A DNA stretch of 64,000 bases, taken from contig CAAETY010000147.1 of assembly GCA_900759105.1 (NCBI GenBank), forward strand, positions 7,431 through 71,430, given 5' to 3'. The notes beneath the pieces were generated by a model that saw nothing but the letters and a program-made list of their open reading frames with translations, was not told the origin of the DNA and made no database searches. Position 1 is the stretch's first letter; the number at the start of each line of letters is the position of its first letter. The position numbers and the translations under genes are program-made. Below, piece by piece: positions 2,691-57,349 of this stretch. The DNA comes from Peptococcaceae bacterium (GTDB lineage Bacteria > Bacillota > Peptococcia > Peptococcales > Peptococcaceae).

Positions 2691-3359
2691 TTATTTTTTG
2701 TAGTCAATTTTTCGAATGCCTTGGGCATACTCTTGAAGCATGTCTTCATCGATGATTTCGATGCAATTGCCATTGTAGGCAATGCAGCCGGCGCTTCTGA
2801 GTGCAAGGATGATTTTGTTGGCGGTAATGCGGTGCATGCCCAAAAAACGGGCGATGTCAGCAACGCTGCAAAAACGTGAAAAGCGAAGCTTGCCGTCGAC
2901 TCTTTCCGAACGCTCAATGATAAAACTTGCCACGCGCGGTGCGGCTTGTCCTTTTTGTTTGGCCACGAAATTACTTACAAGGGTGGAATATTCGCCAAGC
3001 AGACGGTATAAGAGCTCCTTCATCACTGTCGGGTGACGATCGAGAAATTCGTCAAATTCTTCGGCAGTAAGGCGGTGCGCGCGAATTGGTGAAAGCGCAA
3101 TCATTTCACTGCTGCTAATGGTTGCTTGCGGGCTGCTGTATTGGATATAGGGGCCGACTAAGGAATAAACAGATTCTCCGGGTGTATATTCTTCAAAAAA
3201 GATATTTTCACCGGTGGTGGTGGTCATTTGACGCATACAGTTACCTTCTACAAGGTAGTAAACGTAGCTGGCCTCGTCATCGTAGCTGAGTAAGTGCTCT
3301 CCTTTGGCAAATTCGACGAGCGGATACGACATGAGTTCTTTTAAAGCGACTTCGTCCAT
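2691..3359 (-). CDS. Crp/Fnr family transcriptional regulator
   Basis: 222 aa; N-terminal cNMP-binding-like beta-roll and C-terminal HTH (RITANKIILALRSAG). Confidence 0.8.
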   Translation of the reverse strand: MDEVALKELMSYPLVEFAKGEHLLSYDDEASYVYYLVEGNCMRQMTTTTGENIFFEEYTPGESVYSLVGPYIQYSSPQATISSSEMIALSPIRAHRLTAEEFDEFLDRHPTVMKELLYRLLGEYSTLVSNFVAKQKGQAAPRVASFIIERSERVDGKLRFSRFCSVADIARFLGMHRITANKIILALRSAGCIAYNGNCIEIIDEDMLQEYAQGIRKIDYKK

Positions 3360-3650
3360 AAAAACTTCAAAACCTCCTGACGCATGATTTTTATTTCCTA
3401 TTATATAAGGATACCAGATTTTTGCGTTTGTATCAAACCAGACTGTTCCTAATTGGCCAAAAACTGCGTGATTTTTTCTTATTTGCGTGGTTTGTATGTG
3501 CTTGCAAGTGATTCATGCAATGAAGGTGGGAGGGTAACAGTATAATTGGGGATAAAGCATGGAGGGGTTTATCCCCTGTGGACATGGCGGCGATTCACGA
3601 AAATGCATAAAAATCTATTATTGCGGGTTAGTGTTAAATTAAAGGGCAAA

Positions 3651-3852: not shown

Positions 3853-5331
3853 ATGAGTGCACAGAAGCAAAAACGTAATCTGTACCCTCTCCACGTAGTC
3901 GTTGGTTTTGCGATTATCGCGGCTTTCTGGATGATGCCACCAATCGAACCAATTACTGCCTTGGGGATGCGTTGTGCAGGCGCTTTCTTGGGTATGGTTT
4001 ACCTTTGGAGTGCGGTAGACACCCTTTGGCCAAGTATGGTTGGCCTTTTCATGTTGGCAATTTCCGGTTATGGTGGCGAAGCCGGCTTTAACGGCGTATG
4101 GATGCAAGCAGTCGGTGTATACACCGTTCTCTTGACCTTGTTCGCAATGGTACTTTTCGGTGCGATGGACGAAGTTGGCGATACCAAGTATATTGCGAAA
4201 TGGTTCCTCACCCGTTCTATCTTTAAGGGTCGTCCATTGGTATTTATGGCAGTGTTCTATGCAGCAGCCTTTGTTATGAGTGCTGTTTGCCAACCAATGA
4301 CCGCGCTCATCATTCTCTGGCCTGTTGCCAGAAGCTTGATGGACACCATGAATGTTACACGTGAAGACAAAATCTGGAAATTCTTCTTTGTTGGGATGTT
4401 TGCAGTTTCCACTTTGGCGCAACCACTCTTCCCATTCATGGGTGCTCAGCTCATTCCTTACTCTGCTTTCCAAAGTATGACTGCTGCCATGGGCAACCCA
4501 ATGACCATCCCAATGGCACAATATATGGTTGTTAATATGGTAATGACCACCCTCATCATGGCAGTTTTCCTTTTGGGTCTCAAGCTTTTGCGCGTGGATA
4601 TGTCCAAGCTCAAGGCCATTGACCCTGAAATGATCAAGAAGGAAATGGAACTTCCTCCAATGACCTTGCCACAAAAGCTTTATCTCCTTATGGTACCTGC
4701 ATTCTTGGTAATGATGCTCGTACCAAGCTTCTTCCCTGATTTTGCTATTTGCAAAGCCCTCAATATGATTGGGCCAATGGGGATTACCCTTCTTTGGGTT
4801 ATGCTCTTCTTGATTGTTCGTATTGATGGCAAGCCACTCTTGGACTTCAAGGAAGTAGCATATCATCAATTCAGCTGGGGCATCTTCTTTATGATTGCTG
4901 CTGCAGTATTTGGTGCAAACACCTTGTCCAATCCTGAAACCGGGATTCCTGATTTCTTGATTCAAGCATTGACCCCAATCCTCGGTGGTCGCAGTGAAAT
5001 GGTATTTGTTGCTATTCTCTTCACTACCGCATTGATTGTTACCAACTTTGCGAACAACGCTGCAATGGCAGTGGTGCTCATGCCGGTTGTACTCAACTTC
5101 TCCGATCAAATGGGTATCAACCCAATGCCTGTTGCAACCGGGGTTATTCTCATGGTATTCGTGGCAATGTTAACCCCTGCTGCATCTCCACACGCCGGGA
5201 TGATGCACGGGATGAAACCAATCTATTCCACCAAGGAAATCTTGAGCGTTGGTTTCCCTATTTGTATGATTGCGCTCTTGCTCTATATCTTTGTAGGGTA
5301 TCCACTTTGCAAGATTCTCATGGGCGTGTAA
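3853..5331 (+). CDS. ion-transporter-superfamily permease, paralog A (anion/organic-acid permease-like; family not assigned)
   Basis: 492 aa, about 12-14 TM helices, internal two-fold repeat with hairpin-like G/A-rich segments (TNFANNAAMAVVLMPV); about 80% identical to the ORF at 5584. Confidence 0.55.
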   Translation: MSAQKQKRNLYPLHVVVGFAIIAAFWMMPPIEPITALGMRCAGAFLGMVYLWSAVDTLWPSMVGLFMLAISGYGGEAGFNGVWMQAVGVYTVLLTLFAMVLFGAMDEVGDTKYIAKWFLTRSIFKGRPLVFMAVFYAAAFVMSAVCQPMTALIILWPVARSLMDTMNVTREDKIWKFFFVGMFAVSTLAQPLFPFMGAQLIPYSAFQSMTAAMGNPMTIPMAQYMVVNMVMTTLIMAVFLLGLKLLRVDMSKLKAIDPEMIKKEMELPPMTLPQKLYLLMVPAFLVMMLVPSFFPDFAICKALNMIGPMGITLLWVMLFLIVRIDGKPLLDFKEVAYHQFSWGIFFMIAAAVFGANTLSNPETGIPDFLIQALTPILGGRSEMVFVAILFTTALIVTNFANNAAMAVVLMPVVLNFSDQMGINPMPVATGVILMVFVAMLTPAASPHAGMMHGMKPIYSTKEILSVGFPICMIALLLYIFVGYPLCKILMGV

Positions 5332-45157: not shown

Positions 45158-45961
45158 ATGGATACCAAAAATTTATACCAAATTTCAGAGGTCGCGCATG
45201 CTTGCAATGTGTTGCGCAGTACCATTTTGCGTATGGAAGAAAAAGGTTTGCTGCATCCGTTTTATGTATCAGCGGAAAGCGGAAGGCGGTATTACGATAA
45301 CTATGATATTGCCAAGATTAATCACGTTGAGTATTTCAAGGAAATGGGCATGACGACAGAAGAAATTCGAATGTATTACACATCAAGTGATGGAGAGCAT
45401 GAAGTTTTGGCGCATTTGGAGGATAAACTTTATCTTTTGCAGCGCAGTGTCGAAGAAATGCGCTTGCGTGTGAACAGAACCGAAGACATGCTGGTGCAGT
45501 TGATTGACATGCCGACAGAATATTGCTGTGTGCAGCACAGCGAAGGCCGAACCTCACTTGATGTGAAAAAAACAGTGGATGCTTTCTGTAAATCGTGCAT
45601 CAAGCGTGGGGTGGTTATTGCACGGCGGCCGATGTTTGCGGTGCTCGAGAGTGATGTGTATATAACCAGAAATTTTGGCCAAGATCTATTTCCGTTTCAG
45701 GTCTGTATTCCCGTGGTACCGGAAAAGGCACCTGACGATGCGGTGGTGTTTCCGGCGTGCAAGGCATTGTCGGTCATTTATTATGGGGATTATCGCCGAA
45801 GCAACGACGCCTGGGAAAGATTGGTACAGGAGCTCAAGGCACGTGACTTGACGCCACAGGGATGGCCGCGGTCCATCGGCTTGGTAGCAGATTATTCGGG
45901 GCGAGAGCTTAAACGCGAGCGTTGGTGTACGCGCATTGCGGTGCCGGTGAGTGAGCCTTGA
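45158..45961 (+). CDS. MerR-family transcriptional regulator with C-terminal GyrI-like effector-binding domain (BmrR-like)
   Basis: N-terminal MerR HTH (YQISEVAHACNVLRSTILRMEEKGLL) and about 150 aa of GyrI-like C-terminal domain. Confidence 0.75.
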   Translation: MDTKNLYQISEVAHACNVLRSTILRMEEKGLLHPFYVSAESGRRYYDNYDIAKINHVEYFKEMGMTTEEIRMYYTSSDGEHEVLAHLEDKLYLLQRSVEEMRLRVNRTEDMLVQLIDMPTEYCCVQHSEGRTSLDVKKTVDAFCKSCIKRGVVIARRPMFAVLESDVYITRNFGQDLFPFQVCIPVVPEKAPDDAVVFPACKALSVIYYGDYRRSNDAWERLVQELKARDLTPQGWPRSIGLVADYSGRELKRERWCTRIAVPVSEP

Positions 45962-48103: not shown

Positions 48104-48141
48104 GTTTTTACGAGCCACAGCCTTGCCTGTGGCTCTTTTTC

Positions 48142-48170
48142 TTGACTTTGTGTGGGCTTACGCATAAAAT
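48142..48170 (+). promoter_or_regulatory. sigma70 promoter TTGACT-N17-TAAAAT
   Basis: Consensus-like hexamers with a 17-nt spacer immediately upstream of the T-box leader. Confidence 0.6.
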
Positions 48171-48177
48171 AAAAGGA

Positions 48178-48397
48178 GCTATGAAGGGGCTTGTTGTGCC
48201 ATTCTTTACAGAGAGAGCCGGTGGTCGCTGTAAACCGGTTAAAGAAGGCATGATGTTCCACCCCGGAGCGTTGGCGTAATGGCCACGGTTGGCACCGTTA
48301 TCTGCTGCAAAGTGATGATGGCATATGCCGTCATAAACTGGGTGGTACCGCGGAACTTCTCCGTCCCTATGGATATAGGGACGGTTTTTTTATTTTT
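48178..48397 (+). promoter_or_regulatory. T-box riboswitch leader (tRNA-sensing antitermination)
   Basis: AGAGAGA (AG bulge) next to a short distal stem-loop GCCGG...CCGG; canonical T-box sequence AAACTGGGTGGTACCGCGG (48335-48353); terminator CCGTCCCTAT...ATAGGGACGG followed by T7 (48361-48397); candidate specifier UCC-A at 48257-48260. Confidence 0.8.
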
Positions 48398-48411: not shown

Positions 48412-49926
48412 ATGAACATCCTATTAGAGGAACAGCTTTGCGACGAAGCCATGGATGCATTAAACGCTTCGGCAGCAGAGGTCGTTGTTGACCCGAGCCT
48501 TGCTGCTGTCGGCACTGCGGATGCGGTGATTTTGACCGGACGCAGTCCTGTCCCTGATGCCTTATATGATGAAAAATCCTTGTTGCGTGTCGTTGGCTGC
48601 TTAAATGCGAACAATGCAAATTTTGATTTATCTCGTGCGACCCGCGCCGGGCGCATGGTATTGGTGCCGCATTATGGTGAAGCCGCATCAGTGGCGGAAT
48701 ATGCCATGCGCGCCATGCTCGATATGGCACGTAACCGTGCAGACGGTGCCATCGAGCTCAAGGGCAAGACCATCGGCTTTTTGGGATTTCCTCCTTTGGC
48801 CGGGGAAATTGCCCAACGTGCCAATGCCTTTGGCATGAAGGGCTTGTGCTATGACCCGGAACTCAATCGTGGTCGTGCCATGCTGCACAATGTGGAACGC
48901 ACCAATTTGGTAGATCTCTTTGTGCGTAGCGATTTTGTGCTTTTGGTGCAGCCTGCAAGCGAGTGGAGCAAGGGGATGATTGGCAAGGATGAAATTCAGC
49001 TCTTGCAAAAAGGCGCCGGGTTGATTTGTCTTACCGACCCACAAATTTTCCGCTGGGATGAATTGGTCATGGCCCTTGATTGGGAGTATCTCAGTCATTT
49101 CGCCATCGACTTGCCACAAAATCGTGCGCACTTGGCACGTGAAGTAAAAAAATACGGTGCAGTGACCGTTAGCGAAGCGGCCAATACCCGTGAAGCCCGC
49201 TTGGCCAACCAAGTGGAAATGGCACAGGATGTAGTGGCTGCCCTTCGCGGCGAACAGGTTGAAACCGCTATCAACATCACACGTGTGCATCTTGCCAACC
49301 TGCGAGAAGGCGGCGAATGGTGTAACCTCGCCCATACCTTGGGGCTCTTTATGGGACAACGCATGAAAGGCCTTGGTGGCAAATGTATCATTACCGAAAG
49401 CGGCAATGTGCCTTGCACAGAAAGTGATGCCATAGTGGCTGCGCTATTGGAAGGCATGGCCAAGGGGCTCGGTGAAACCACCATTAACCGCATCAATGCC
49501 CTGCTTTGGGCCGAAGAAAACGGTCTCAATTTAACCATCGAAAAAAAACCGGATGCAGCGGAAAGCCGTCTGCACCTTTCGGTGGAAACCAAGGAAAGCC
49601 ACTTACAGGTGGCCGGTACCCGAAGCGGTGGCCAAGCGCTTATTGTGCAGGTAGATGATTATGTGGTGCATGCACAGCCACGCACCCATTTGTTGCTCGT
49701 ACCGCACATCAATCGTCCGGGCTTGGTTGGACAGATTGGGACATTGTTGGGCGAAAAAAATGTAAACATCGCAGAAATGGTGTTGGGGCACAAGCCGCAA
49801 GACCGTACCACTGCGTTAATGTGGATCCATATCGAAGAAGCGTTGGATAAATCCATCAGCGAAGAGAGCCGCAAACTCGCCAGCGTGCTCAATATGGAAT
49901 ATATTCATTTACCAAATCAAGATTGA
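48412..49926 (+). CDS. type-I D-3-phosphoglycerate dehydrogenase homolog (ASB+ACT domains) with degenerate NAD-binding and catalytic motifs
   Basis: 504 aa; 2-hydroxyacid-DH fold; Rossmann motif reads GFLGFPPLAG rather than GxGxxG; by-eye alignment puts Asp and Glu at the positions of catalytic Arg and His; C-terminal ACT (HLLLVPHINRPGLVGQIGTLLG). Confidence 0.6.
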   Translation: MNILLEEQLCDEAMDALNASAAEVVVDPSLAAVGTADAVILTGRSPVPDALYDEKSLLRVVGCLNANNANFDLSRATRAGRMVLVPHYGEAASVAEYAMRAMLDMARNRADGAIELKGKTIGFLGFPPLAGEIAQRANAFGMKGLCYDPELNRGRAMLHNVERTNLVDLFVRSDFVLLVQPASEWSKGMIGKDEIQLLQKGAGLICLTDPQIFRWDELVMALDWEYLSHFAIDLPQNRAHLAREVKKYGAVTVSEAANTREARLANQVEMAQDVVAALRGEQVETAINITRVHLANLREGGEWCNLAHTLGLFMGQRMKGLGGKCIITESGNVPCTESDAIVAALLEGMAKGLGETTINRINALLWAEENGLNLTIEKKPDAAESRLHLSVETKESHLQVAGTRSGGQALIVQVDDYVVHAQPRTHLLLVPHINRPGLVGQIGTLLGEKNVNIAEMVLGHKPQDRTTALMWIHIEEALDKSISEESRKLASVLNMEYIHLPNQD

Positions 49927-49948: not shown

Positions 49949-51214
49949 ATGTTAGATATTAAAGAAATGCGTCGTGACCCTGAACGTGTGGCAAAAGCTG
50001 TAGGCCGCCGTGGCAAAGAAATTGATATGAAGCCATTCCTTGAAGCCGATGAAAAGCGTCGTCAAATCATCGCCAAGGTTGAAGAATTACAAGCACAACG
50101 CAACGCAAAGAGCAAGGAAGTTGGCCAACTCAAGCGCAACGGTGAAAATGCCGATGCCCTCATGGCAGAAGTAAGCGCCATCAAGGCAGAAATCGAAAAA
50201 CTCGAAGCTTCCAAAGAAGAAGTGGATACCTTCGTAACCAACTTTGTGGCAAGCATTCCAAACATGCCAAAGGATGACATTCCGGACGGCGGCGAAGACG
50301 ATTATCATGTAGAACGCACCTGGGGCACCCCACGCGAATTTGCTTTTGAACCAAAGGCACACTGGGAACTCGGTGAAGCCCTCGACATTTTGGACTTTAA
50401 CCGTGCTGCCAAGGTAACCGGTAGCCGCTTTGTATTCTACAAAGGCTTGGCTGCACGCTTGGAACGTGCTGTTATCGCATTTATGATTGATATGCACACC
50501 GACAAGCACGGTTATACCGAACTCATTCCACCATACATGACCAACAGCACTTCTGACTTTGGTACTGGTCAATTGCCTAAGTTTGCAGAAGACATGTTCC
50601 ACTTGGAAAACACCGACTATTACCTCATTCCAACCGCTGAAGTGCCTGTAACCAACTATCACAGAGATGAAATCCTCACCGAAAAGGACCTTCCTGTAAA
50701 ATATTGCGCATTCAGCCCATGCTTCCGTTCCGAAGCAGGCTCTGCCGGTCGTGATACCCGCGGTATCATCCGTCAGCACCAATTCCACAAGGTTGAAATG
50801 GTAAAGCTCGCACATCCTGATCATTCCTGGGAAGAGCTTGAAAGCCTGACCCACGATGCAGAAGAAGTGCTTCAAGCATTGGGCCTTCCATATCGTGTGA
50901 TTACCTTGGCTGCCGGGGACATCGGTTTCAGCTCTGCCAAGACCTACGACATCGAAGTATGGCTCCCAAGCTACGGCAAATACCGTGAAATTTCTTCCTG
51001 CTCCAACTTTGTAGACTTCCAAGCACGCCGTGCCAACATCCGTTTCCGTGACAACGATGGCAAAGTACGCTACGTACACACCTTAAACGGCTCCGGCTTG
51101 GCTGTTGGTCGTACCGTTTCCGCTATTATGGAAAACTACCAAAACGAAGACGGCAGCATTACCATTCCGGAAGCACTCGTTCCTTACATGCACGGGTACA
51201 CTGAAATTCGCTAA
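49949..51214 (+). CDS. serS: seryl-tRNA synthetase
   Basis: 421 aa; N-terminal coiled-coil arm plus class II core motifs ([21 protein letters not shown]). Confidence 0.95.
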
Positions 51215-51236
51215 TTCGTAAGGAGTAATGGAATCA

Positions 51237-52637
51237 ATGAAAAAAGACTTGGATTTTACACGTATTCATCGATTCGTATTCGATGATTTACACATCATGC
51301 TCGACGTGAACAGTGGCTCTGTCCATGTAACCGACGAAGCGGTGGATGCCTTCCTCGATGCCCTGGAGGAAGGTCAAGCATGGGACGATGCCATTGCGAC
51401 CACCGCAAAAGCCTATGGCGAAGAAGACGCCAAGGACATTGCCGAAGGCATTGAAGCCTTGATTGACGAAGGCATGCTCTTTAGTGATGTAGATTTTGCT
51501 GATTATGTACCGCATACCCAACCAATCGTGAAGGCAATGTGCTTACACATGGCCCATGACTGCAACCTGCGCTGTGGCTATTGCTTTGCGGACACCGGCG
51601 CATATGGCGGCGGTCGTTCCTTGATGAGCCTTGAAGTCGGCAAGAAAGCCATCGACTTCCTCATGGAAGCAAGCAAGCACCGTACCCATGTGGAAATCGA
51701 CTTCTTTGGCGGCGAACCACTCTTGAACATGGATGTGTGCAAGCAGGTGGCAGCCTATGCCAAGGAAAAAGCCGCTGAAAAAGGCAAAATCGTAAAGATG
51801 ACCATGACCACCAACGGGGTGCTCTTGGACGATGAATGTGCAAAGTGGCTCAACGAAGAAGAAATGGACGCCGTACTTTCCTTGGACGGACGTCCGGAGG
51901 TACACGACAACATGCGTCGTTTTGCCGGCGGCCAACCAAGCTACGAAGTGTGCAAAAACCACTTCCAAAACTTTGTAAACAGCCGTGACCACAAGCAATA
52001 CTATCTCCGTGGCACCTATACCCACTTTAACCCTGATTTTGCACAAGATGCCATCCACATGGCAGATGATTTGGGCTTTGTAGAGCTTTCCTTGGAACCG
52101 GTTGTAGCACCGGCTGACATGCCTTATGCCTTGACCGAAGAAGACAAGCCAACCATTCTCGAAAACTACAACATTCTCGCACGCCACTATTTGGATCGCT
52201 GGCGCGAAGGCAAGGGCTACAATTTCTTCCACTTTAACGTGGACTTTACCGGTGGCCCATGCCTGCCAAAACGTTTGAGCGGCTGTGGCTCCGGCCATGA
52301 CTACTTGGCGGTTAGCCCGGAAGGGGACCTTTACCCTTGTCACCAATTTGTAGGCGAAGAAGATTACAAGATGGGGACCGTATTCACCGGCATTGAAAAA
52401 CCTGAAATTGCCGAACGCTTCCAAAAAGCCAACGTCCTCACCAAGCCAACCTGCATGAAGTGCTGGGCACGTTTCTTCTGCAGCGGTGGCTGCCACGCCA
52501 ACAACATTCGTTACGGCGGTGGCATTAACGAACCGTACGAATACGGCTGCGATTTGCAACGCAAGCGCATTGAAACGGCAATTTACGTACAAACCGTGAA
52601 AATGATCGAAAGCGCTGAAGGAGGCGAGGACCAATGA
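51237..52637 (+). CDS. radical SAM/SPASM peptide maturase, SCIFF-maturase (ScfB/CteB)-like
   Basis: About 466 aa; roughly 100-aa N-terminal RRE-like extension; CNLRCGYC radical SAM cluster; C-terminal SPASM C-x2-C-x5-C-x3-C (CMKCWARFFCSGGC); strong recalled similarity to thioether-forming SCIFF maturases; ATGA overlap with pheA. Confidence 0.6.
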   Translation: MKKDLDFTRIHRFVFDDLHIMLDVNSGSVHVTDEAVDAFLDALEEGQAWDDAIATTAKAYGEEDAKDIAEGIEALIDEGMLFSDVDFADYVPHTQPIVKAMCLHMAHDCNLRCGYCFADTGAYGGGRSLMSLEVGKKAIDFLMEASKHRTHVEIDFFGGEPLLNMDVCKQVAAYAKEKAAEKGKIVKMTMTTNGVLLDDECAKWLNEEEMDAVLSLDGRPEVHDNMRRFAGGQPSYEVCKNHFQNFVNSRDHKQYYLRGTYTHFNPDFAQDAIHMADDLGFVELSLEPVVAPADMPYALTEEDKPTILENYNILARHYLDRWREGKGYNFFHFNVDFTGGPCLPKRLSGCGSGHDYLAVSPEGDLYPCHQFVGEEDYKMGTVFTGIEKPEIAERFQKANVLTKPTCMKCWARFFCSGGCHANNIRYGGGINEPYEYGCDLQRKRIETAIYVQTVKMIESAEGGEDQ

Positions 52638-53500
52638 GTGGTCTTTTGCCATCCTTTGCAGAACCTGTAAAAAAACCGCGCATTGCATTCCAAGGCATTG
52701 AAGGCTCCTTTAGCGATGGCGCTTGCCAAAAGGTGTTTGGCTCTGACGTTGAACGTGTCGGCATGCCACACTTTCAATATGTGGTAGAAGGCGTATGCAG
52801 CGGAGAATATGATTACGGGGTGCTCCCAATCGAAAACTCTTCCACAGGGAGCATTAACGATGTGTATGATTTGCTCAACGAAAACCCATGTTACATTGTG
52901 GGTGAAACATCACTTGAAATCACCCAAAACCTCATGGCTGTGCCGGGCACCAAGCTTGAGGATGTGGCCTATGTATACTCTCATCCCCAAGGCCTCGGCC
53001 AAAGCCAACGCTTTTTGATGCAGCACAATATTGAACCGCGCCCTTATGCGGACACTGCCATGAGTGCACGCTACATCGCCGAAACCCGCCCGGCAGACGG
53101 GGCGGCCATTGCTTCCAAGCAAGCGGCGGAAGTGTACGGCTTGGAAATTTTGGTGCCGCATGTAAACTTTAACTTTTCAAATATCACCCGTTTTGTGGTT
53201 ATTCGCAAAGAACCGGAAATCACCCCAAACCAAAATAAGGTGAGTGTGGTCTTTAAGACTGCGCACCGTCCGGGGGCACTGTTGGAAGCCTTGCGATTTG
53301 TCGCGGAAGCACACATCGACATGAGCCGCATTGAATCTCGCCCGGTCATTGGTAAACCTTGGGAATACAGCTTCTATGTGGATCTCTTGGGTCACTGGGA
53401 TGATGAAAACTTTATGTACTGCTTGGAACAGATGCAAGCAGTAACGGAAGATTTCCGCGTGCTCGGCACCTACGAAGCCGCAGAAACACACTATCTCTAA
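52634..53500 (+). CDS. pheA: prephenate dehydratase (PDT plus ACT)
   Basis: 288 aa; PDT domain plus C-terminal ACT; ESRP motif. Confidence 0.85.
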   Translation: MSGLLPSFAEPVKKPRIAFQGIEGSFSDGACQKVFGSDVERVGMPHFQYVVEGVCSGEYDYGVLPIENSSTGSINDVYDLLNENPCYIVGETSLEITQNLMAVPGTKLEDVAYVYSHPQGLGQSQRFLMQHNIEPRPYADTAMSARYIAETRPADGAAIASKQAAEVYGLEILVPHVNFNFSNITRFVVIRKEPEITPNQNKVSVVFKTAHRPGALLEALRFVAEAHIDMSRIESRPVIGKPWEYSFYVDLLGHWDDENFMYCLEQMQAVTEDFRVLGTYEAAETHYL

Positions 53501-53519: not shown

Positions 53520-54455
53520 ATGAAAGATCTCTTTTCCCACGTTGTCGGCGAAAACAACGTGAAACTCAACGAACCCCTTAGCGCCCACACTACCTTCCGC
53601 ATTGGTGGCCCTTGTGATGCAATGGCTTTTCCACATAGTGTGGATGAACTCGCAGCTGTGGTGCGCATTTGCAAGCGTGAAGGCTTGGATTATTTTGTGC
53701 TTGGAAAGGGTAGCAATATCCTTGTTGCCGACAAGGGCGTGCGCGGTGTGGTCATTGCCACCGAGTGCTTGCGCGCTCTCTTTATTCAAGACAATGCCGT
53801 TTGTGCCAGCGCAGGCCTTTCCCTCATCAATGTGAGTAAGGCTTGTGCCGAGCTTGGTTTGAGCGGTCTTGAATTTGCCAGTGGTATTCCCGGGAGCATC
53901 GGCGGTGCAGCGTATATGAATGCCGGTGCTTATGACGGTGAAATGAAGGATGTTGTTACCAGTGTGACCGTGCTTGATGCAAGCGGTAACATCCGTGAAA
54001 TCCATGCTGATGACATGCAATTTAGCTATCGCCATAGCCGCCTCAAGGAGGAACCCCTTGTTTGTTTGGCGGTGACGATGCAACTCAAGGACGGCGACAA
54101 GAAGGACATCCTTGCCCATATCGCAGACCTTTCCGAACGCCGTAGCAGCCGTCAACCTTTGGAGCTTCCAAGTGCCGGGAGCACCTTCAAACGCCCAACC
54201 GGCTATTATGCAGGGCCACTCATCATTGAAGCAGGCCTGCAAGGCTACACCGTGGGCGGCGCCCAAGTCAGCACCAAGCATGCTGGCTTTGTCGTGAATG
54301 TGGGCGATGCCACCGCTGATGACGTGATTCGCCTCATCCATCACGTACAACAAACCGTCAAGGCTCACCACGGCGTGGACCTTGAAACAGAAGTACGCTT
54401 TATCGGAAAGTGGGATGACCATCCGCTCTATCATGAGATTTTGCGTGCCGAATAG
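53520..54455 (+). CDS. murB: UDP-N-acetylenolpyruvoylglucosamine reductase
   Basis: 311 aa; FAD-binding PCMH fold; N-terminal HTTFRIGGP motif. Confidence 0.9.
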   Translation: MKDLFSHVVGENNVKLNEPLSAHTTFRIGGPCDAMAFPHSVDELAAVVRICKREGLDYFVLGKGSNILVADKGVRGVVIATECLRALFIQDNAVCASAGLSLINVSKACAELGLSGLEFASGIPGSIGGAAYMNAGAYDGEMKDVVTSVTVLDASGNIREIHADDMQFSYRHSRLKEEPLVCLAVTMQLKDGDKKDILAHIADLSERRSSRQPLELPSAGSTFKRPTGYYAGPLIIEAGLQGYTVGGAQVSTKHAGFVVNVGDATADDVIRLIHHVQQTVKAHHGVDLETEVRFIGKWDDHPLYHEILRAE

Positions 54456-54467
54456 CATACAAATGTA

Positions 54468-54509
54468 AAATAACCCTGTTTCCTATCGTGGGAAACAGGG
54501 TTATTTTGT
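54468..54509 (+). terminator. rho-independent terminator (left copy of the 29-bp repeat)
   Basis: CCCTGTTTCC-tatcgt-GGGAAACAGGG hairpin followed by ATTTTGTG. Confidence 0.8.
54474..54502. repeat. 29-bp direct repeat CCCTGTTTCCTATCGTGGGAAACAGGGTT (left copy)
   Basis: Identical to 57356-57384. Confidence 0.9.
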
Positions 54510-54713
54510 GTTGTAGCATATCTTCCTACTTATTAAGCGCATCCAACTTTTCAAAATTGCATCTAATTGCAAATCATCCATGCGATTGAGTTTATTTTTG
54601 ATTTCACCCAGGCTCTGTTGTATCTCTAAACAAGATGAGCGAATTTGAATCACCATCACCAATGTTATTACAAGTAGTATTGGTACAACAACCCAAAAAA
54701 TTAATTCTAGCAT
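54501..54713 (-). CDS. small single-TM protein with coiled-coil tail (island cargo)
   Basis: 70 aa; TM helix FWVVVPILLVITLVMVI; AT-rich gene; immediately downstream of the secreted-protein gene. Confidence 0.45.
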   Translation of the reverse strand: MLELIFWVVVPILLVITLVMVIQIRSSCLEIQQSLGEIKNKLNRMDDLQLDAILKSWMRLISRKICYNTK

Positions 54714-54731
54714 TTTAATTATCCCCTTTGT

Positions 54732-55652
54732 TTAAGCGAGGTATTGAGCATGTCCTTCTTCACTACCCTTTCCGGAAAATGAAATAGATCCTACATTAAA
54801 AGAAACCTCCACTGTACCGGGTGTCCAACTATGAAAGTAATATGCATTAATTAAAATCGTTCCGGAGGTCACAGGGCTGGCATTCGCCACAAAAGCTTTA
54901 CCAGCCTGACAATACTGTGGACTCCAAGATGTGGCATGTAACATTTCAATATCAAATTTCACATTACCATTACTTGTATATACAGGGTAGATGCGTTTAT
55001 TGGTATCCTCTAAATATCCATTCTCATCTTTATATATTAATTTGGCAGTGCTAGAACCTTGAACTACATAGCCATTAGAAATACATGCAGCAATTGGATC
55101 TGTATATTTTACACTTGGTGCACTATCCCAATGCCAGTAAATATTGTAATTACATTGTCCTGATGTACGAGAAACACTTGCTATATTAAATGCCAATTTC
55201 GAAGAGGCCGCTCTTACATCGGCATCTGATAGGTTTTCATAATTTCCTGATTTAATATTAGCGATAGCTTCTTTGGAAAGTCCTTTACTCACTAGTGCTG
55301 TCTTAGAAAGTTTCGCAGCATTATCTAAGACAATCTTTTTAGTACTTTCCGTTCTCAGCTTTTTTATATCATTTTCTTCCATTTTAAGATTTATTAATTC
55401 TTTGTCAGACATTTTTTTCATTTCTTCAATAGAATCAATTTCATAGCGTATTGACGCACCAGGTAGACTTGCAATCTCTTCATAAGTCAGGGTATCGTCG
55501 TTTGCTAAAAAGCCCTCATAAGTGCTATCCATTTCCAAAACTTGTGTCATATGAGAATTTTGTGCTGTAGCTGCACTTAGTGGTAATGCTAAACTCATCA
55601 TTAATAATACACTACATCCAAGCGCTACTGTTCTTCTTAATGTTTTTTTCAT
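54732..55652 (-). CDS. secreted hypothetical protein (island cargo)
   Basis: 306 aa; signal peptide with an AxA-type cleavage site; low-GC codon usage unlike the surrounding genes. Confidence 0.5.
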   Translation of the reverse strand: MKKTLRRTVALGCSVLLMMSLALPLSAATAQNSHMTQVLEMDSTYEGFLANDDTLTYEEIASLPGASIRYEIDSIEEMKKMSDKELINLKMEENDIKKLRTESTKKIVLDNAAKLSKTALVSKGLSKEAIANIKSGNYENLSDADVRAASSKLAFNIASVSRTSGQCNYNIYWHWDSAPSVKYTDPIAACISNGYVVQGSSTAKLIYKDENGYLEDTNKRIYPVYTSNGNVKFDIEMLHATSWSPQYCQAGKAFVANASPVTSGTILINAYYFHSWTPGTVEVSFNVGSISFSGKGSEEGHAQYLA

Positions 55653-55948
55653 CGTGATAACCTCCTTGCAAAATAAAAAATAAATATTCTGAATTATTCG
55701 TGGCCACCACCTCTTTATTTTTAATCAACTTCATTTGCACATAATCAGCTATTAGACATTGATTTCGGATACCTAGATATTACCGAACGCTGTGCAAAAA
55801 ATACTTAATCGAGTATGTTTATTCTATTTTAACAAAATTCGGTAAATTTGTAAACGAATAACAAACGGTTCTACTATTTTTCGAGATTGTTATCGATGCT
55901 AATCTGAAAAATGTCAATAGTTCCTGTTGAAGATAGATAAAATTAAAG

Positions 55949-57349
55949 GCTCTTCACGGATTTCGGTTGGAAAATAAAATAATTACAAAAACACGAGCAT
56001 GCCTCATACTGTAAGTATCCACACAAACCAGTAAAGGGAGGACATGCTCGTGTTTGATTTAGAGTTTAATGAACTAGACATGCTTTGTCAAGATAACCAC
56101 AGAGATGATACTTCTATAATTGTACAACCCGAAAAACATTCTATACCTTCTTCCTGTCCGCATTGTGGTTCTAAAATGTATCGTCATGGACTATATACGA
56201 GAAAATTGAAAGATATGCCCGTTTATCCAGATACTTCCTATACACTGATTATTAAAGCACAACGTTACCGTTGTCCACATTGTGGTTGTTCTATACGGCA
56301 GGAAATTTCTCATCGTTATCCAGGTACTAATATCACCAAACGTGCAGCTGCTTGGATTAAAGCTTCTTTGAACGCTAAATTTCCGGTGTCTCAGATTGAA
56401 GATATTACAGGAATTCATTGGGATACTATTCGTAAAATTCAAGAGGAACTCATTTCTCAAGCATTGAATGAGTATGAAAATTTACAGGTTAAAAACGGAT
56501 ATAAACCAAAGTATCTTGCAATAGATGAATTTGCGATTCGTAAAATGCACAAGTACGCTACTTGTGTCATGGATTTAGAAAAGGGGCATGTTATTTGGGC
56601 AGGATTAGGTAGAGCAAAGGCAGATTTTGAATATTTCTTCAAGGATATCCCTACATCTTATCTCGAACAAGTCGAGGTAGTTGCTATGGATATGAACGCT
56701 TCCTACAATCTTCTTGTTGAACAATATTTGCCACAAGCAACGATTGTCTATGATTGTTATCATATGCAAGCACAATTTGGAAAAGTGGTGCTTGGAGAAA
56801 CTCGTTTGGAAGCTGTCAAAGCACATCGCAAACAGGCTGAGCAACTCACTACACAAGCTGCGTGTGAAACGCAGGATGAAACAAGAAAAGTGTTGAAAGC
56901 ACAAGCCAAAGAAGAAAAACGAATATCAAGTCTACTCAAGAACAGTAAACAGCTCAAGGATAGTGAACAACAAAAATTAGCAACCATAGTGGAAAGCCAC
57001 GAAGAAGTGGCTATTTGCTATGCGATGAAAGAAGAAATGATGCGATTATATGAATTGAGAGATGAACAACAAGCGAGAACTGAATGGTTAAATTGGTTTG
57101 TGGCAGCAAAAGCAAGTGGTATTCCTGCCCTAGTAAAGTTTGCACAGTTAAAAGAAAAACGCTTACTGGGATTAGTCGCACATGCGACTATCCCGATAAG
57201 CACAGGTAAATTAGAAGGATTCAACAACGTTATACAGACTGCCAAGAGAACTGCTTATGGTTATCTGAATAATGAATTCTTCCTTAGGCTGATAAGATAT
57301 CTATCGCTACCGAAGGGATGAATTCCAATCGAAATCCGCGATGAACCAA
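55949..57349 (+). mobile_element. ISL3-family insertion sequence
   Basis: Terminal imperfect 25-bp inverted repeats GGCTCTTCACGGATTTCGGTTGGAA (55949-55973) and GGTTCATCGCGGATTTCGATTGGAA (reverse complement of 57325-57349) bracket the transposase ORF. Confidence 0.8.
56044..57321 (+). CDS. ISL3 family transposase
   Basis: 425 aa; N-terminal zinc-finger (CPHCGS...CPHCGC) and a DDE domain of ISL3 type. Confidence 0.9.
   Translation: MLVFDLEFNELDMLCQDNHRDDTSIIVQPEKHSIPSSCPHCGSKMYRHGLYTRKLKDMPVYPDTSYTLIIKAQRYRCPHCGCSIRQEISHRYPGTNITKRAAAWIKASLNAKFPVSQIEDITGIHWDTIRKIQEELISQALNEYENLQVKNGYKPKYLAIDEFAIRKMHKYATCVMDLEKGHVIWAGLGRAKADFEYFFKDIPTSYLEQVEVVAMDMNASYNLLVEQYLPQATIVYDCYHMQAQFGKVVLGETRLEAVKAHRKQAEQLTTQAACETQDETRKVLKAQAKEEKRISSLLKNSKQLKDSEQQKLATIVESHEEVAICYAMKEEMMRLYELRDEQQARTEWLNWFVAAKASGIPALVKFAQLKEKRLLGLVAHATIPISTGKLEGFNNVIQTAKRTAYGYLNNEFFLRLIRYLSLPKG

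Follow-up and report, generated by a model that had tools for sequence, protein, structure and literature searches.

The 64 kb stretch of DNA analysed here (the window) carries, at positions 48412-49926 of its plus strand, an open reading frame for a protein of 504 amino acids with the architecture of a type-I SerA, the D-3-phosphoglycerate dehydrogenase (PGDH), which we call pseudo-PGDH. All other features of the locus given below lie on the same strand. The frame is preceded by a promoter-like site (TTGACT, a 17-nt spacer and TAAAAT; 48142-48170, 10 of 12 positions matching the consensus) located immediately 3' of the terminator of an S49 peptidase gene (48112-48135), and the leaders of the orthologues have a TTGAC-type box at the equivalent location. 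Next comes a T-box leader (48172-48371), which gives a full-length match to RF00230 with 104.2 bits as compared to a gathering score of 93. Its specifier codon, UCC for serine (48257-48259, followed by an A at 48260), recurs at the corresponding position of every orthologous leader aligned, while the bases around it differ. Further downstream the leader contains the T-box sequence GGGTGGTACCGCG (48340-48352) and an intrinsic terminator (48361-48384) composed of a 10-bp stem and TTTTTTTATT. Judged by its score, its stem I specifier, the T-box sequence and the terminator, the leader qualifies as a serine-class T-box, and as it heads the operon, induction is expected when tRNA-Ser is undercharged.

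The gene for seryl-tRNA synthetase (SerRS), serS (49949-51214, 421 amino acids; TIGR00414, 547 bits versus a cut-off of 302), starts 22 nt downstream of the pseudo-PGDH gene, so that both the T-box and the co-operonic serS of an earlier, sequence-only reading of this locus were found as described. It is followed, probably within the same operon, by scfB for a SCIFF-type radical SAM maturase (51228-52637), a prephenate dehydratase gene (52634-53500) and murB (53520-54455), and the first strong terminator is found past murB (54467-54507). The linkage to scfB, the prephenate dehydratase gene and murB is confined to the closer Peptococcaceae group and is absent in distant members.

Domain architecture and fold

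The type-I SerA architecture that had been proposed from the sequence is borne out by Pfam, an AlphaFold model and Foldseek, all four domains being present: a substrate-binding lobe (residues 1-100 and 266-295), an NAD lobe (101-265), an ASB domain (296-418) and an ACT domain (419-504). Pfam matches comprise 2-Hacid_dh, 2-Hacid_dh_C and PGDH_inter, which corresponds to the ASB domain, as well as an ACT match below the gathering score (21.5 versus 27 bits). The AlphaFold model, built from a 29-sequence input, has a pLDDT of 90.8 and a pTM of 0.79, and its top Foldseek matches are the type-I PGDH structures 3DDN, 1YGY and 3DC2 of Mycobacterium tuberculosis (Mtb), with E values of about 1e-39. 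Mtb SerA is also the best sequence match (HMMER, E 1.4e-25; 23-24% identity). Pseudo-PGDH does not reach the cut-off of the TIGR01327 equivalog (243.5 versus 454 bits).

Catalytic, substrate and cofactor motifs

Enzymes of the 2-hydroxyacid dehydrogenase (2HADH) superfamily rely on an Arg-Glu-His catalytic triad (PMC6303947). Residue correspondences were counted on the HMMER alignment to 1YGY and cross-checked in MAFFT alignments that included 8-33 canonical PGDHs. In these alignments pseudo-PGDH lacks the triad of type-I PGDHs at all three positions: D209 in CLTDPQ (residues 206-211; 49027-49044) takes the place of the catalytic Arg (Mtb R233), R238 in FAIDLPQNRA (residues 230-239; 49099-49128), a segment in which D233 is retained, that of the catalytic Glu (Mtb E262), and S254 in VSEAANT (residues 253-259; 49168-49188) that of the catalytic His (Mtb H280). 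A careful alignment thus does not restore Arg, Glu or His, and the by-eye replacements of SRG by TDP and of TPHIGG by SEAAN in the sequence-only reading were each right to within one residue.

The dinucleotide-binding motif is degenerate too. In GFLGFPPLAG (residues 122-131; 48775-48804), from which the same reading had deduced the loss of GxGxxG, G125, P127 and A130 occupy the positions of Mtb G149, G151 and G154. The NAD-ribose Asp, aligned to Mtb D172, is still present as D148 in CYDP (residues 146-149; 48847-48858); all 29 aligned sequences have it, whereas several distant dead relatives do not. Likewise, the loop that anchors the substrate in canonical PGDHs (vGRAGVGvDNiD) has degenerated to VGCLNANNANFD (residues 61-72; 48592-48627), with CLNANNANFD (about residues 63-72) in place of RAGxGxDN(I/V)D, and about 15 residues are deleted from the hinge loop after 'LAR'. 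Chance or misalignment can be dismissed as the source of these losses, as the HMMER-to-PDB alignment and three independent MAFFT alignments agree throughout and the same losses are seen in every orthologue and distant clade member examined.

Distribution, order of loss and selection

Proteins of this kind form a group of about 30 protein clusters, hereafter the dead clade. It includes 24 clusters with 36-100% identity to pseudo-PGDH, in addition P0025, and further P0061-P0070, which were added by an exhaustive HMM search of 1.84 billion representatives. HMM scores grade from 867 down to 275 bits, at which point canonical PGDHs start, and in a neighbour-joining tree a single branch separates all dead members from the canonical PGDHs, which cluster together. 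Pseudo-PGDH is present in 10 GTDB species and in distant lineages; a metagenome scan with a narrower alignment yielded 12 loci.

The triad is absent from every member of the dead clade examined, and its His position is variable (S, A, G, N, E, Q, K, T, R and others). The basal members P0025, P0065 and P0067-P0069 retain the dinucleotide motif as GLGNVG, which indicates that loss of the catalytic residues preceded that of the NAD motif.

All properly assembled loci, in lineages down to 28% identity, have an uninterrupted frame of full length, and the sole broken copy (L037) stems from a frameshifted assembly in which serS is broken too. By the NG86 method dN/dS of pseudo-PGDH ranges overall from 0.036 to 0.08 (0.054 between the window and L005, 0.036 between L008 and L009), similar to the neighbouring genes (SerRS 0.016-0.039, ScfB 0.013-0.057, PheA 0.02-0.08), and reaches its lowest values in the NAD lobe (0.009-0.045); the ACT domain gives 0.015-0.028. 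Together, low dN/dS and intact frames exclude a decaying pseudogene, and purifying selection on pseudo-PGDH is as strong as on its housekeeping neighbours. At the amino acid level pseudo-PGDH changes about 3-5 times as fast as SerRS.

Conservation is distributed differently among the domains than in active enzymes. Within the dead clade conservation is highest in the ACT domain, with a mean pairwise identity of 0.42 as compared to 0.37 in canonical PGDHs, whereas the NAD lobe is less conserved (0.39 versus 0.49) and the N-terminal substrate lobe shows the largest loss (0.28 versus 0.46).

The ACT domain and its putative effector site

In the AlphaFold model residues 426-499 adopt the beta-alpha-beta-beta-alpha-beta fold of an ACT domain (strands 426-433, 453-460, 467-474 and 496-499; helices 438-448 and 480-486), and the region gives weak matches to PF22629 and PDB 2FGC. 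The glycine-rich RPG turn of the ligand site is conserved. It lies in the first of two putative effector-site motifs, PHINRPG (residues 431-437) and VNIAEM (residues 451-456), which together span 49702-49779. In the alignment with Mtb SerA, H432, N434 and N452 occupy the positions of Y461, D463 and N481, which contact serine in that enzyme (PMC8238522). Of these, N434 stands in place of the Asp of most type-I enzymes and is lost in one distant dead member, P0067, and H432 and N452 are invariant throughout the dead clade, as is I453. In all, 8 of the 20 residues invariant in the dead clade belong to the ACT domain (H432, G437, G440, G443, G447, N452, I453 and M456).

HMMER matched E. coli SerA in its catalytic part only, and the correspondence to its ACT domain therefore rests on the Mtb alignment and on a motif, H-x-N-R-P-G followed by V-N-I, which we take to be the E. 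coli counterpart. On this basis H432 and N434 are of the same residue types as His344 and Asn346 of the E. coli feedback site, the mutation of which renders E. coli SerA feedback resistant (PMC9612172). Pseudo-PGDH and the type II enzyme of E. coli thus resemble one another in the putative effector site, whereas E. coli SerA is an active enzyme without an ASB domain. The idea of a serine sensor fits the sequence of the ACT domain.

Genomic neighbourhoods

Linkage to serS was counted in 18 distinct neighbourhoods, 17 of them with an intact serS and one a frameshifted assembly. In every locus with downstream sequence serS begins between -32 and +42 nt past the pseudo-PGDH gene, and the two frames often overlap or nearly so. 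A T-box precedes the pair in most loci; two lineages (L018 and L035) have the pair without it. Linkage to serS, and not to serC or serB, sets pseudo-PGDH apart from type-I PGDHs, and a canonical relative, P0074, adjoins serC and not serS.

Three distinct neighbourhoods (L004/L013, L018 and L038) also contain serC and an intact short serA, at a distance of 2-3 genes from that for pseudo-PGDH. The short SerA has 300 amino acids and intact RAGVG, ARG, EP and PH motifs, so that these neighbourhoods do not depend on the dead copy as their functional SerA. Neither serA nor serC was found elsewhere in the 64 kb window, and its ten closest loci likewise lack both genes within 10 kb of the pseudo-PGDH gene. 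A related species (L039-L048), recovered like L038 in a homologue search with the short SerA, has the gene order serC-serA-DUF975-S49 with no pseudo-PGDH gene alongside.

Discussion

The sequence-only reading took this protein for a pseudo-enzyme or an allosteric serine-sensing subunit, and our analysis agrees with and extends this view. The triad, the substrate loop and GxGxxG are gone while purifying selection persists, and the losses are shared by a coherent clade without the triad. Judged from sequence, loss of the catalytic residues, purifying selection and conservation across species would together mark pseudo-PGDH as a pseudoenzyme, and on the same grounds the dead clade represents a coherent branch of pseudoenzymes within the SerA family that is maintained by selection. 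A search of the PubMed Central open-access and bioRxiv literature returned no description of a PGDH pseudoenzyme or of a link between SerRS and PGDH. We tentatively favour the view, which we place a little short of an even chance, that the frame encodes a functional non-catalytic type-I PGDH paralogue, a 'pseudo-SerA', that is probably a serine-binding regulator tied to SerRS. Its constant position upstream of serS together with the loss of catalysis suggests a regulatory protein rather than an enzyme.

How might such a protein work? Selection appears to have left the catalytic cleft and to act now on the ACT module, in which the serine-contacting positions are still present, and the dehydrogenase body would now serve as an oligomerisation scaffold for an amino acid sensor, the most likely ligand being L-serine. 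The most likely output would be control of seryl-tRNA supply, because serS always adjoins, the frames often overlap or nearly so and the pair persists without a T-box. Such control could be exerted by direct binding to SerRS or by adjusting, in concert with SerRS, a step that consumes or produces serine. The term 'subunit', as used in the sequence-only reading, is a guess at the status of the protein. In view of the constrained NAD lobe and the retained D148 the ligand may also be of the nucleotide type. A general RNA or tRNA binder built on the degenerate Rossmann fold, an idea prompted by the same D148, is unlikely since the dead clade is acidic (isoelectric points of 4.9-5.8 versus a canonical median of 6.1). 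Then again, a shared need for induction or operon inertia alone could account for the common operon with serS, without any physical interaction.

In its most specific form the favoured view would make the dead SerA a serine-sensing allosteric partner of SerRS that tunes the charging of tRNA-Ser or protects or channels scarce serine. We consider this rather unlikely; we know of no aminoacyl-tRNA synthetase that is regulated by an ACT-domain protein. If true, it would establish a new class of aminoacyl-tRNA synthetase regulator and a mirror image of the HisZ-HisG pair. HisZ is a catalytically dead paralogue of HisRS that regulates the ATP-phosphoribosyltransferase HisG as an allosteric sensor. 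In both cases a dead paralogue of a housekeeping enzyme joins an amino acid pathway with the matching synthetase family; however, the direction is reversed, as pseudo-PGDH derives from the biosynthetic enzyme and its gene adjoins that of the synthetase.

Other known systems offer partial parallels. Mtb SerA1 (1YGY, 3DC2, 3DDN) shares with pseudo-PGDH the order of the four domains and the alignable effector positions of the ACT domain, whereas the triad, GxGxxG, the RAGxGxDN loop and about 15 hinge residues are missing from pseudo-PGDH. CtBP, which was among the sequence matches, is an NADH-sensing co-repressor and thus likewise a member of the 2HADH superfamily used in sensing and regulation rather than in metabolism; different from pseudo-PGDH, it is eukaryotic and retains both NAD motif and triad, which pseudo-PGDH has lost, and pseudo-PGDH has an ACT domain. 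IlvH/IlvN, the small subunit of acetohydroxyacid synthase, works in trans through an ACT module to which the amino acid formed by the pathway binds, but these are small stand-alone ACT proteins, whereas in pseudo-PGDH the ACT domain sits on a whole dead dehydrogenase.

Could pseudo-PGDH instead regulate an active PGDH? Pseudoenzymes mostly regulate their own active paralogues, and pseudo-PGDH might act in trans as the regulatory subunit of a short, domain-less (type-III-like) PGDH, to which it would lend its ASB/ACT module. Pairing would occur through the dimer interface of the NAD lobe and would make serine synthesis both sensitive to serine and, via the amount of regulator, inducible through the T-box. 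A short SerA without ACT domain is encoded with serC near the pseudo-PGDH gene in L004/L013, L018 and L038, none of these serC-serA pairs is preceded by a separate T-box, and the lowest dN/dS values fall in the NAD lobe, the dimer interface of PGDHs. However, serC-serA is linked in just three of about 18 neighbourhoods, and there on the opposite strand, whereas linkage to serS is universal, and the window and its ten closest loci have neither gene within 10 kb. In addition, the NAD lobes of pseudo-PGDH and the short SerA are only about 28% identical, and the related species with serC-serA-DUF975-S49 does without an adjacent pseudo-PGDH gene. On balance we regard this alternative as doubtful.

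It is very unlikely that pseudo-PGDH is a serine-sparing decoy, the ASB-ACT half of which binds the alpha subunit of L-serine dehydratase or another serine-catabolic enzyme and shuts down serine breakdown when tRNA-Ser is undercharged. The ASB-ACT half of PGDHs is homologous to the beta subunit of the iron-sulfur L-serine dehydratase, and residues 360-485 of pseudo-PGDH do weakly match TIGR00719 (sda_beta, E 7.6e-4), but this similarity is general to the ASB/ACT region of type-I PGDHs and not specific to the clade. Induction through a Ser T-box would agree with a serine-sparing role, as would the labelling of the host organisms as Peptococcaceae, which are amino acid fermenters; yet an sdaA gene was seen in none of the neighbourhoods, and to our knowledge such a decoy has no precedent.

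Equally improbable to us is that the protein remains catalytic, either through catalytic residues that have moved or been exchanged or by use of another cofactor or substrate. Altered triads are known in the superfamily, with His replaced by Lys in SERA type IIIK and by Trp in subfamily X4 (PMC6303947), the type-IIIK PGDH being a precedent. The NAD lobe is strongly constrained and keeps D148, and the basal members, which retain GLGNVG and YDP, probably still bind NAD(H). Against this, the triad has been lost at all three positions together with the main-chain substrate loop, the residues that replace the triad are not conserved across the clade, not a single new cleft residue is invariant, and the loss of conservation is greatest in the substrate lobe.

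Ser T-boxes are found upstream of serS in many Firmicutes. In species of Paenibacillus, Bacillus and Clostridium, serA is also preceded by T-boxes with UCC or AGC specifiers (PMC8002221), which makes an ancestral T-box-serA-serS operon plausible; the T-box-controlled serA of these Firmicutes encodes an active enzyme, whereas the 'serA' described here is dead and incorporated in a serS operon. That pseudo-PGDH is a functionless relic of such an operon, kept between leader and serS, is strongly disfavoured and to us scarcely credible, for despite its rapid amino acid evolution relative to SerRS it has a dN/dS of about 0.04-0.08, a full-length intact frame in all properly assembled loci, an ACT domain more conserved than in real PGDHs and a confident AlphaFold model.

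A non-catalytic SerA paralogue tied to serS would have consequences beyond this locus. The constant pairing with serS suggests that gut Peptococcaceae and related bacteria have a further layer of control on the use of serine or the charging of tRNA-Ser. The clade, in which decay of the triad was followed by that of the NAD motif and constraint on the ACT domain increased, would provide a natural example of an ordered transition from enzyme to sensor. Finally, at least one source labels a member of the clusters 'D-3-phosphoglycerate dehydrogenase', and metabolic reconstructions may therefore wrongly infer serine prototrophy, an error that would concern abundant gut metagenome-assembled genomes.

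Results and Discussion

The first gene of the serS operon (48412-49926, + strand) encodes a 504-residue protein, termed pseudo-PGDH here, with the Pfam domains 2-Hacid_dh, 2-Hacid_dh_C, PGDH_inter (the ASB domain) and, below threshold, ACT. Its match to the NCBIfam PGDH equivalog TIGR01327 spans the full length but scores 243.5 bits, where the cut-off is 454. The AlphaFold2 model, built on a 29-sequence alignment, is confident (pLDDT 90.8, pTM 0.79), ends in the beta-alpha-beta-beta-alpha-beta fold of an ACT domain, and finds the M. tuberculosis type-I PGDH (Mtb SerA; 3DDN, 1YGY and 3DC2) as its top PDB matches (E about 1e-39, 23-24% identity). Counted along the HMMER alignment to 1YGY, the GxGxxG glycines G149/G151/G154 of Mtb SerA correspond to G125/P127/A130, and the catalytic residues R233, E262 and H280 to D209, R238 and S254, while the NAD-ribose aspartate D172 is kept as D148. 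The sequence-only reading had claimed loss of the GxGxxG motif and, apparently, of the catalytic Arg and His; since MAFFT alignments with canonical PGDHs give the same correspondences, its motif placements were right to within one residue. The active site is more widely damaged than it reported, because in the MAFFT alignments the RAGVGxDN loop that anchors the substrate reads CLNANNAN and about 15 residues following 'LAR' are deleted.

The protein belongs to a family of its own kind. A homology search gave 24 clusters at 36-100% identity and a further one, P0025, at 31-32%; after a jump, the next matches, at 25-30%, are ordinary PGDHs. Clusters P0061-P0070 were added by a profile search that covered 1.84 billion representative proteins exhaustively. 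Profile scores of this dead series run from 867 down to 275 bits and the canonical continuum begins at about 270 bits; in the motif table Arg, Glu and His are absent from every member of the series and present in every sequence from P0071 on. Neighbour joining places the canonical enzymes in one cluster and all dead ones across a single branch from it. Intermediate dead members read GFGxxA at the NAD motif and the group of the window GF(P/T)Pxx. Since the distant members P0025, P0065, P0067, P0068 and P0069 lack the triad yet still carry GLGNVG and YDP, the triad was lost first and the NAD motif later.

Mean pairwise identities per domain show where constraint would have moved in the dead clade: they are 0.28 in the N-terminal substrate lobe (0.46 in canonical PGDHs), 0.39 in the NAD lobe (0.49), 0.27 in ASB (0.30) and 0.42 in ACT (0.37), so that ACT is the most conserved domain of the clade and by this measure is better conserved there than in real PGDHs. 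H432, N434 and N452 of pseudo-PGDH align with the serine-contacting Y461, D463 and N481 of Mtb SerA (PMC8238522), and the residue types H and N at 432 and 434 are those of the E. coli SerA feedback site, where mutation of His344 and Asn346 yields a feedback-resistant enzyme (PMC9612172). H432, G437, G440, G443, G447, N452, I453 and M456 are invariant in the 18 most diverse dead members. This alignment and invariance of ACT-site residues supports the inference that the site has retained ligand binding.

The gene is preceded by a promoter-like site (48142-48170) and a bona fide T-box leader (48172-48371; RF00230, 104.2 bits against 93) with the specifier UCC followed by A (48257-48260), the T-box sequence (48340-48352) and a terminator (48361-48384). 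serS starts 22 nt past the end of the pseudo-PGDH ORF, and no strong terminator lies ahead of 54467-54507, 3' of murB. Most lineages have a T-box ahead of the gene, with UCC as the specifier in all aligned orthologous leaders. The pair is nevertheless kept at two loci, L018 and L035, whose short ordinary leaders lack a T-box (4763-4916 and 3200-3384, respectively, with just a terminator and promoter or a short leader); regulation of the pair is different in these lineages. When one genome was scanned for each GTDB species, the gene turned up in 10 of them, every one labelled as uncultured Peptococcaceae; all ten share the order pseudo-PGDH, serS, scfB, pheA, murB and mostly also the upstream VanY, DUF436, DUF975 and S49 genes. 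More distant members have unrelated neighbours, yet serS always comes next (P0025 at L015, P0024 at L017, P0022 at L018, P0061 at L020, P0069 at L021 and P0067 at L023; further L033, L034/L035, L038 and the frameshifted L037), the gap being -32 to +42 nt at all loci. The canonical relative P0074 lies with serC, not serS.

As far as sequence analysis can establish it, pseudo-PGDH is thus a conserved non-catalytic SerA paralogue in which the ACT effector module is conserved best. It is transcribed together with serS, in the normal case controlled by uncharged tRNA-Ser. The reading that we rate most likely, if tentatively and somewhat short of an even chance, is that the dead dehydrogenase body serves as scaffold for an amino-acid sensor, of L-serine, which would act together with SerRS on seryl-tRNA supply. 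That it binds SerRS directly is unlikely.

Alternatively, pseudo-PGDH might be a regulatory subunit acting in trans on a catalytic SerA. At L004/L013, L018 and L038 a divergent serC and a 300-residue 2-hydroxyacid dehydrogenase lie two to three genes upstream; this short SerA keeps RAGVGIDNID, CARGG, EP and TPH and is 77% identical to a Peptococcus niger protein named D-3-phosphoglycerate dehydrogenase in UniRef and D-2-hydroxyacid dehydrogenase by NCBI. The intact pair is flanked by DUF975 on one side and by DUF436 or LPG synthase on the other (L004 3600-5601, L018 180-2177, L038 8908-10903). Such a role would follow the usual logic of pseudoenzymes and fit the proximity in three distinct neighbourhoods, but it is the linkage to serS that is universal, and most copies have neither serC nor serA nearby; we therefore consider it doubtful. 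The window and its closest relatives lack the pair in that slot and have a MerR-family gene instead (45158-45961 in the window), and the serine pathway may have been lost or moved in this species.

A decoy for L-serine dehydratase, to which a weak sda_beta similarity might point, is highly improbable, as this similarity is generic to type-I PGDHs. Much the same low probability attaches to a re-tooled enzyme, since what replaces the catalytic residues is not conserved. A functionless relic is hardly credible in view of dN/dS (NG86, unsaturated pairs only), which is 0.036-0.08 for the whole of pseudo-PGDH, 0.009-0.045 for its NAD lobe and 0.015-0.028 for ACT, next to 0.012-0.039 for SerRS, 0.013-0.057 for ScfB and 0.02-0.08 for PheA.

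Full-text searches of the literature turned up neither a PGDH pseudoenzyme nor a PGDH-SerRS link. The 2HADH classification describes the triad as conserved in almost all members; the exceptions that it lists are SERA type IIIK, where Lys replaces the His, and subfamily X4, where Trp does (PMC6303947). Ser T-boxes 5' of serA genes are already known (PMC8002221), but those genes are active, whereas the paralogue behind the T-box of the window appears dead. What seems new here is a pseudoenzyme branch of SerA with an unexplained serS partnership. One source names a cluster member D-3-phosphoglycerate dehydrogenase, a label that misleads metabolic reconstruction.

Several minor observations concern the surroundings of the gene. 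tRNA-Ser genes (anticodons UGA and GCU) directly follow serS at two distant loci (L015 7442-7774, L023 5313-5399); the window contains no tRNA genes. At L037 (3879-6080, contig BNJS01000496.1) pseudo-PGDH and serS are both fragmented, which suggests indel errors in the assembly rather than a true pseudogene. An extra ORF of about 477 residues, with no Pfam domain and absent from the window, separates the T-box leader from the S49 peptidase gene in several relatives (L006, L008, L009, L012, e.g. L008 8381-9760; L001 6164-7597). By its score (TIGR03974, 597 bits) the radical SAM gene between serS and pheA (51228-52637) is the SCIFF maturase ScfB; an ORF for a six-Cys SCIFF precursor was found neither beside it nor elsewhere in the 64 kb. 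An ISL3-family transposase gene (DDE_Tnp_ISL3, 56044-57321) lies 3' of the operon, and the low GC content (0.39) of the stretch directly before it (54001-56000) suggests an insertion. Finally, database gene calls for the orthologues P0002, P0010, P0017 and P0022 carry N-terminal extensions of 40-70 residues, which in P0002 and P0017 are translated T-box leader (e.g. 'HKLGGTAEF' from GGGTGGTACCGCGGAATTC) and in P0022 span the ordinary leader without a T-box (L018 4787-4915); the start codons of these four calls are mis-annotated.
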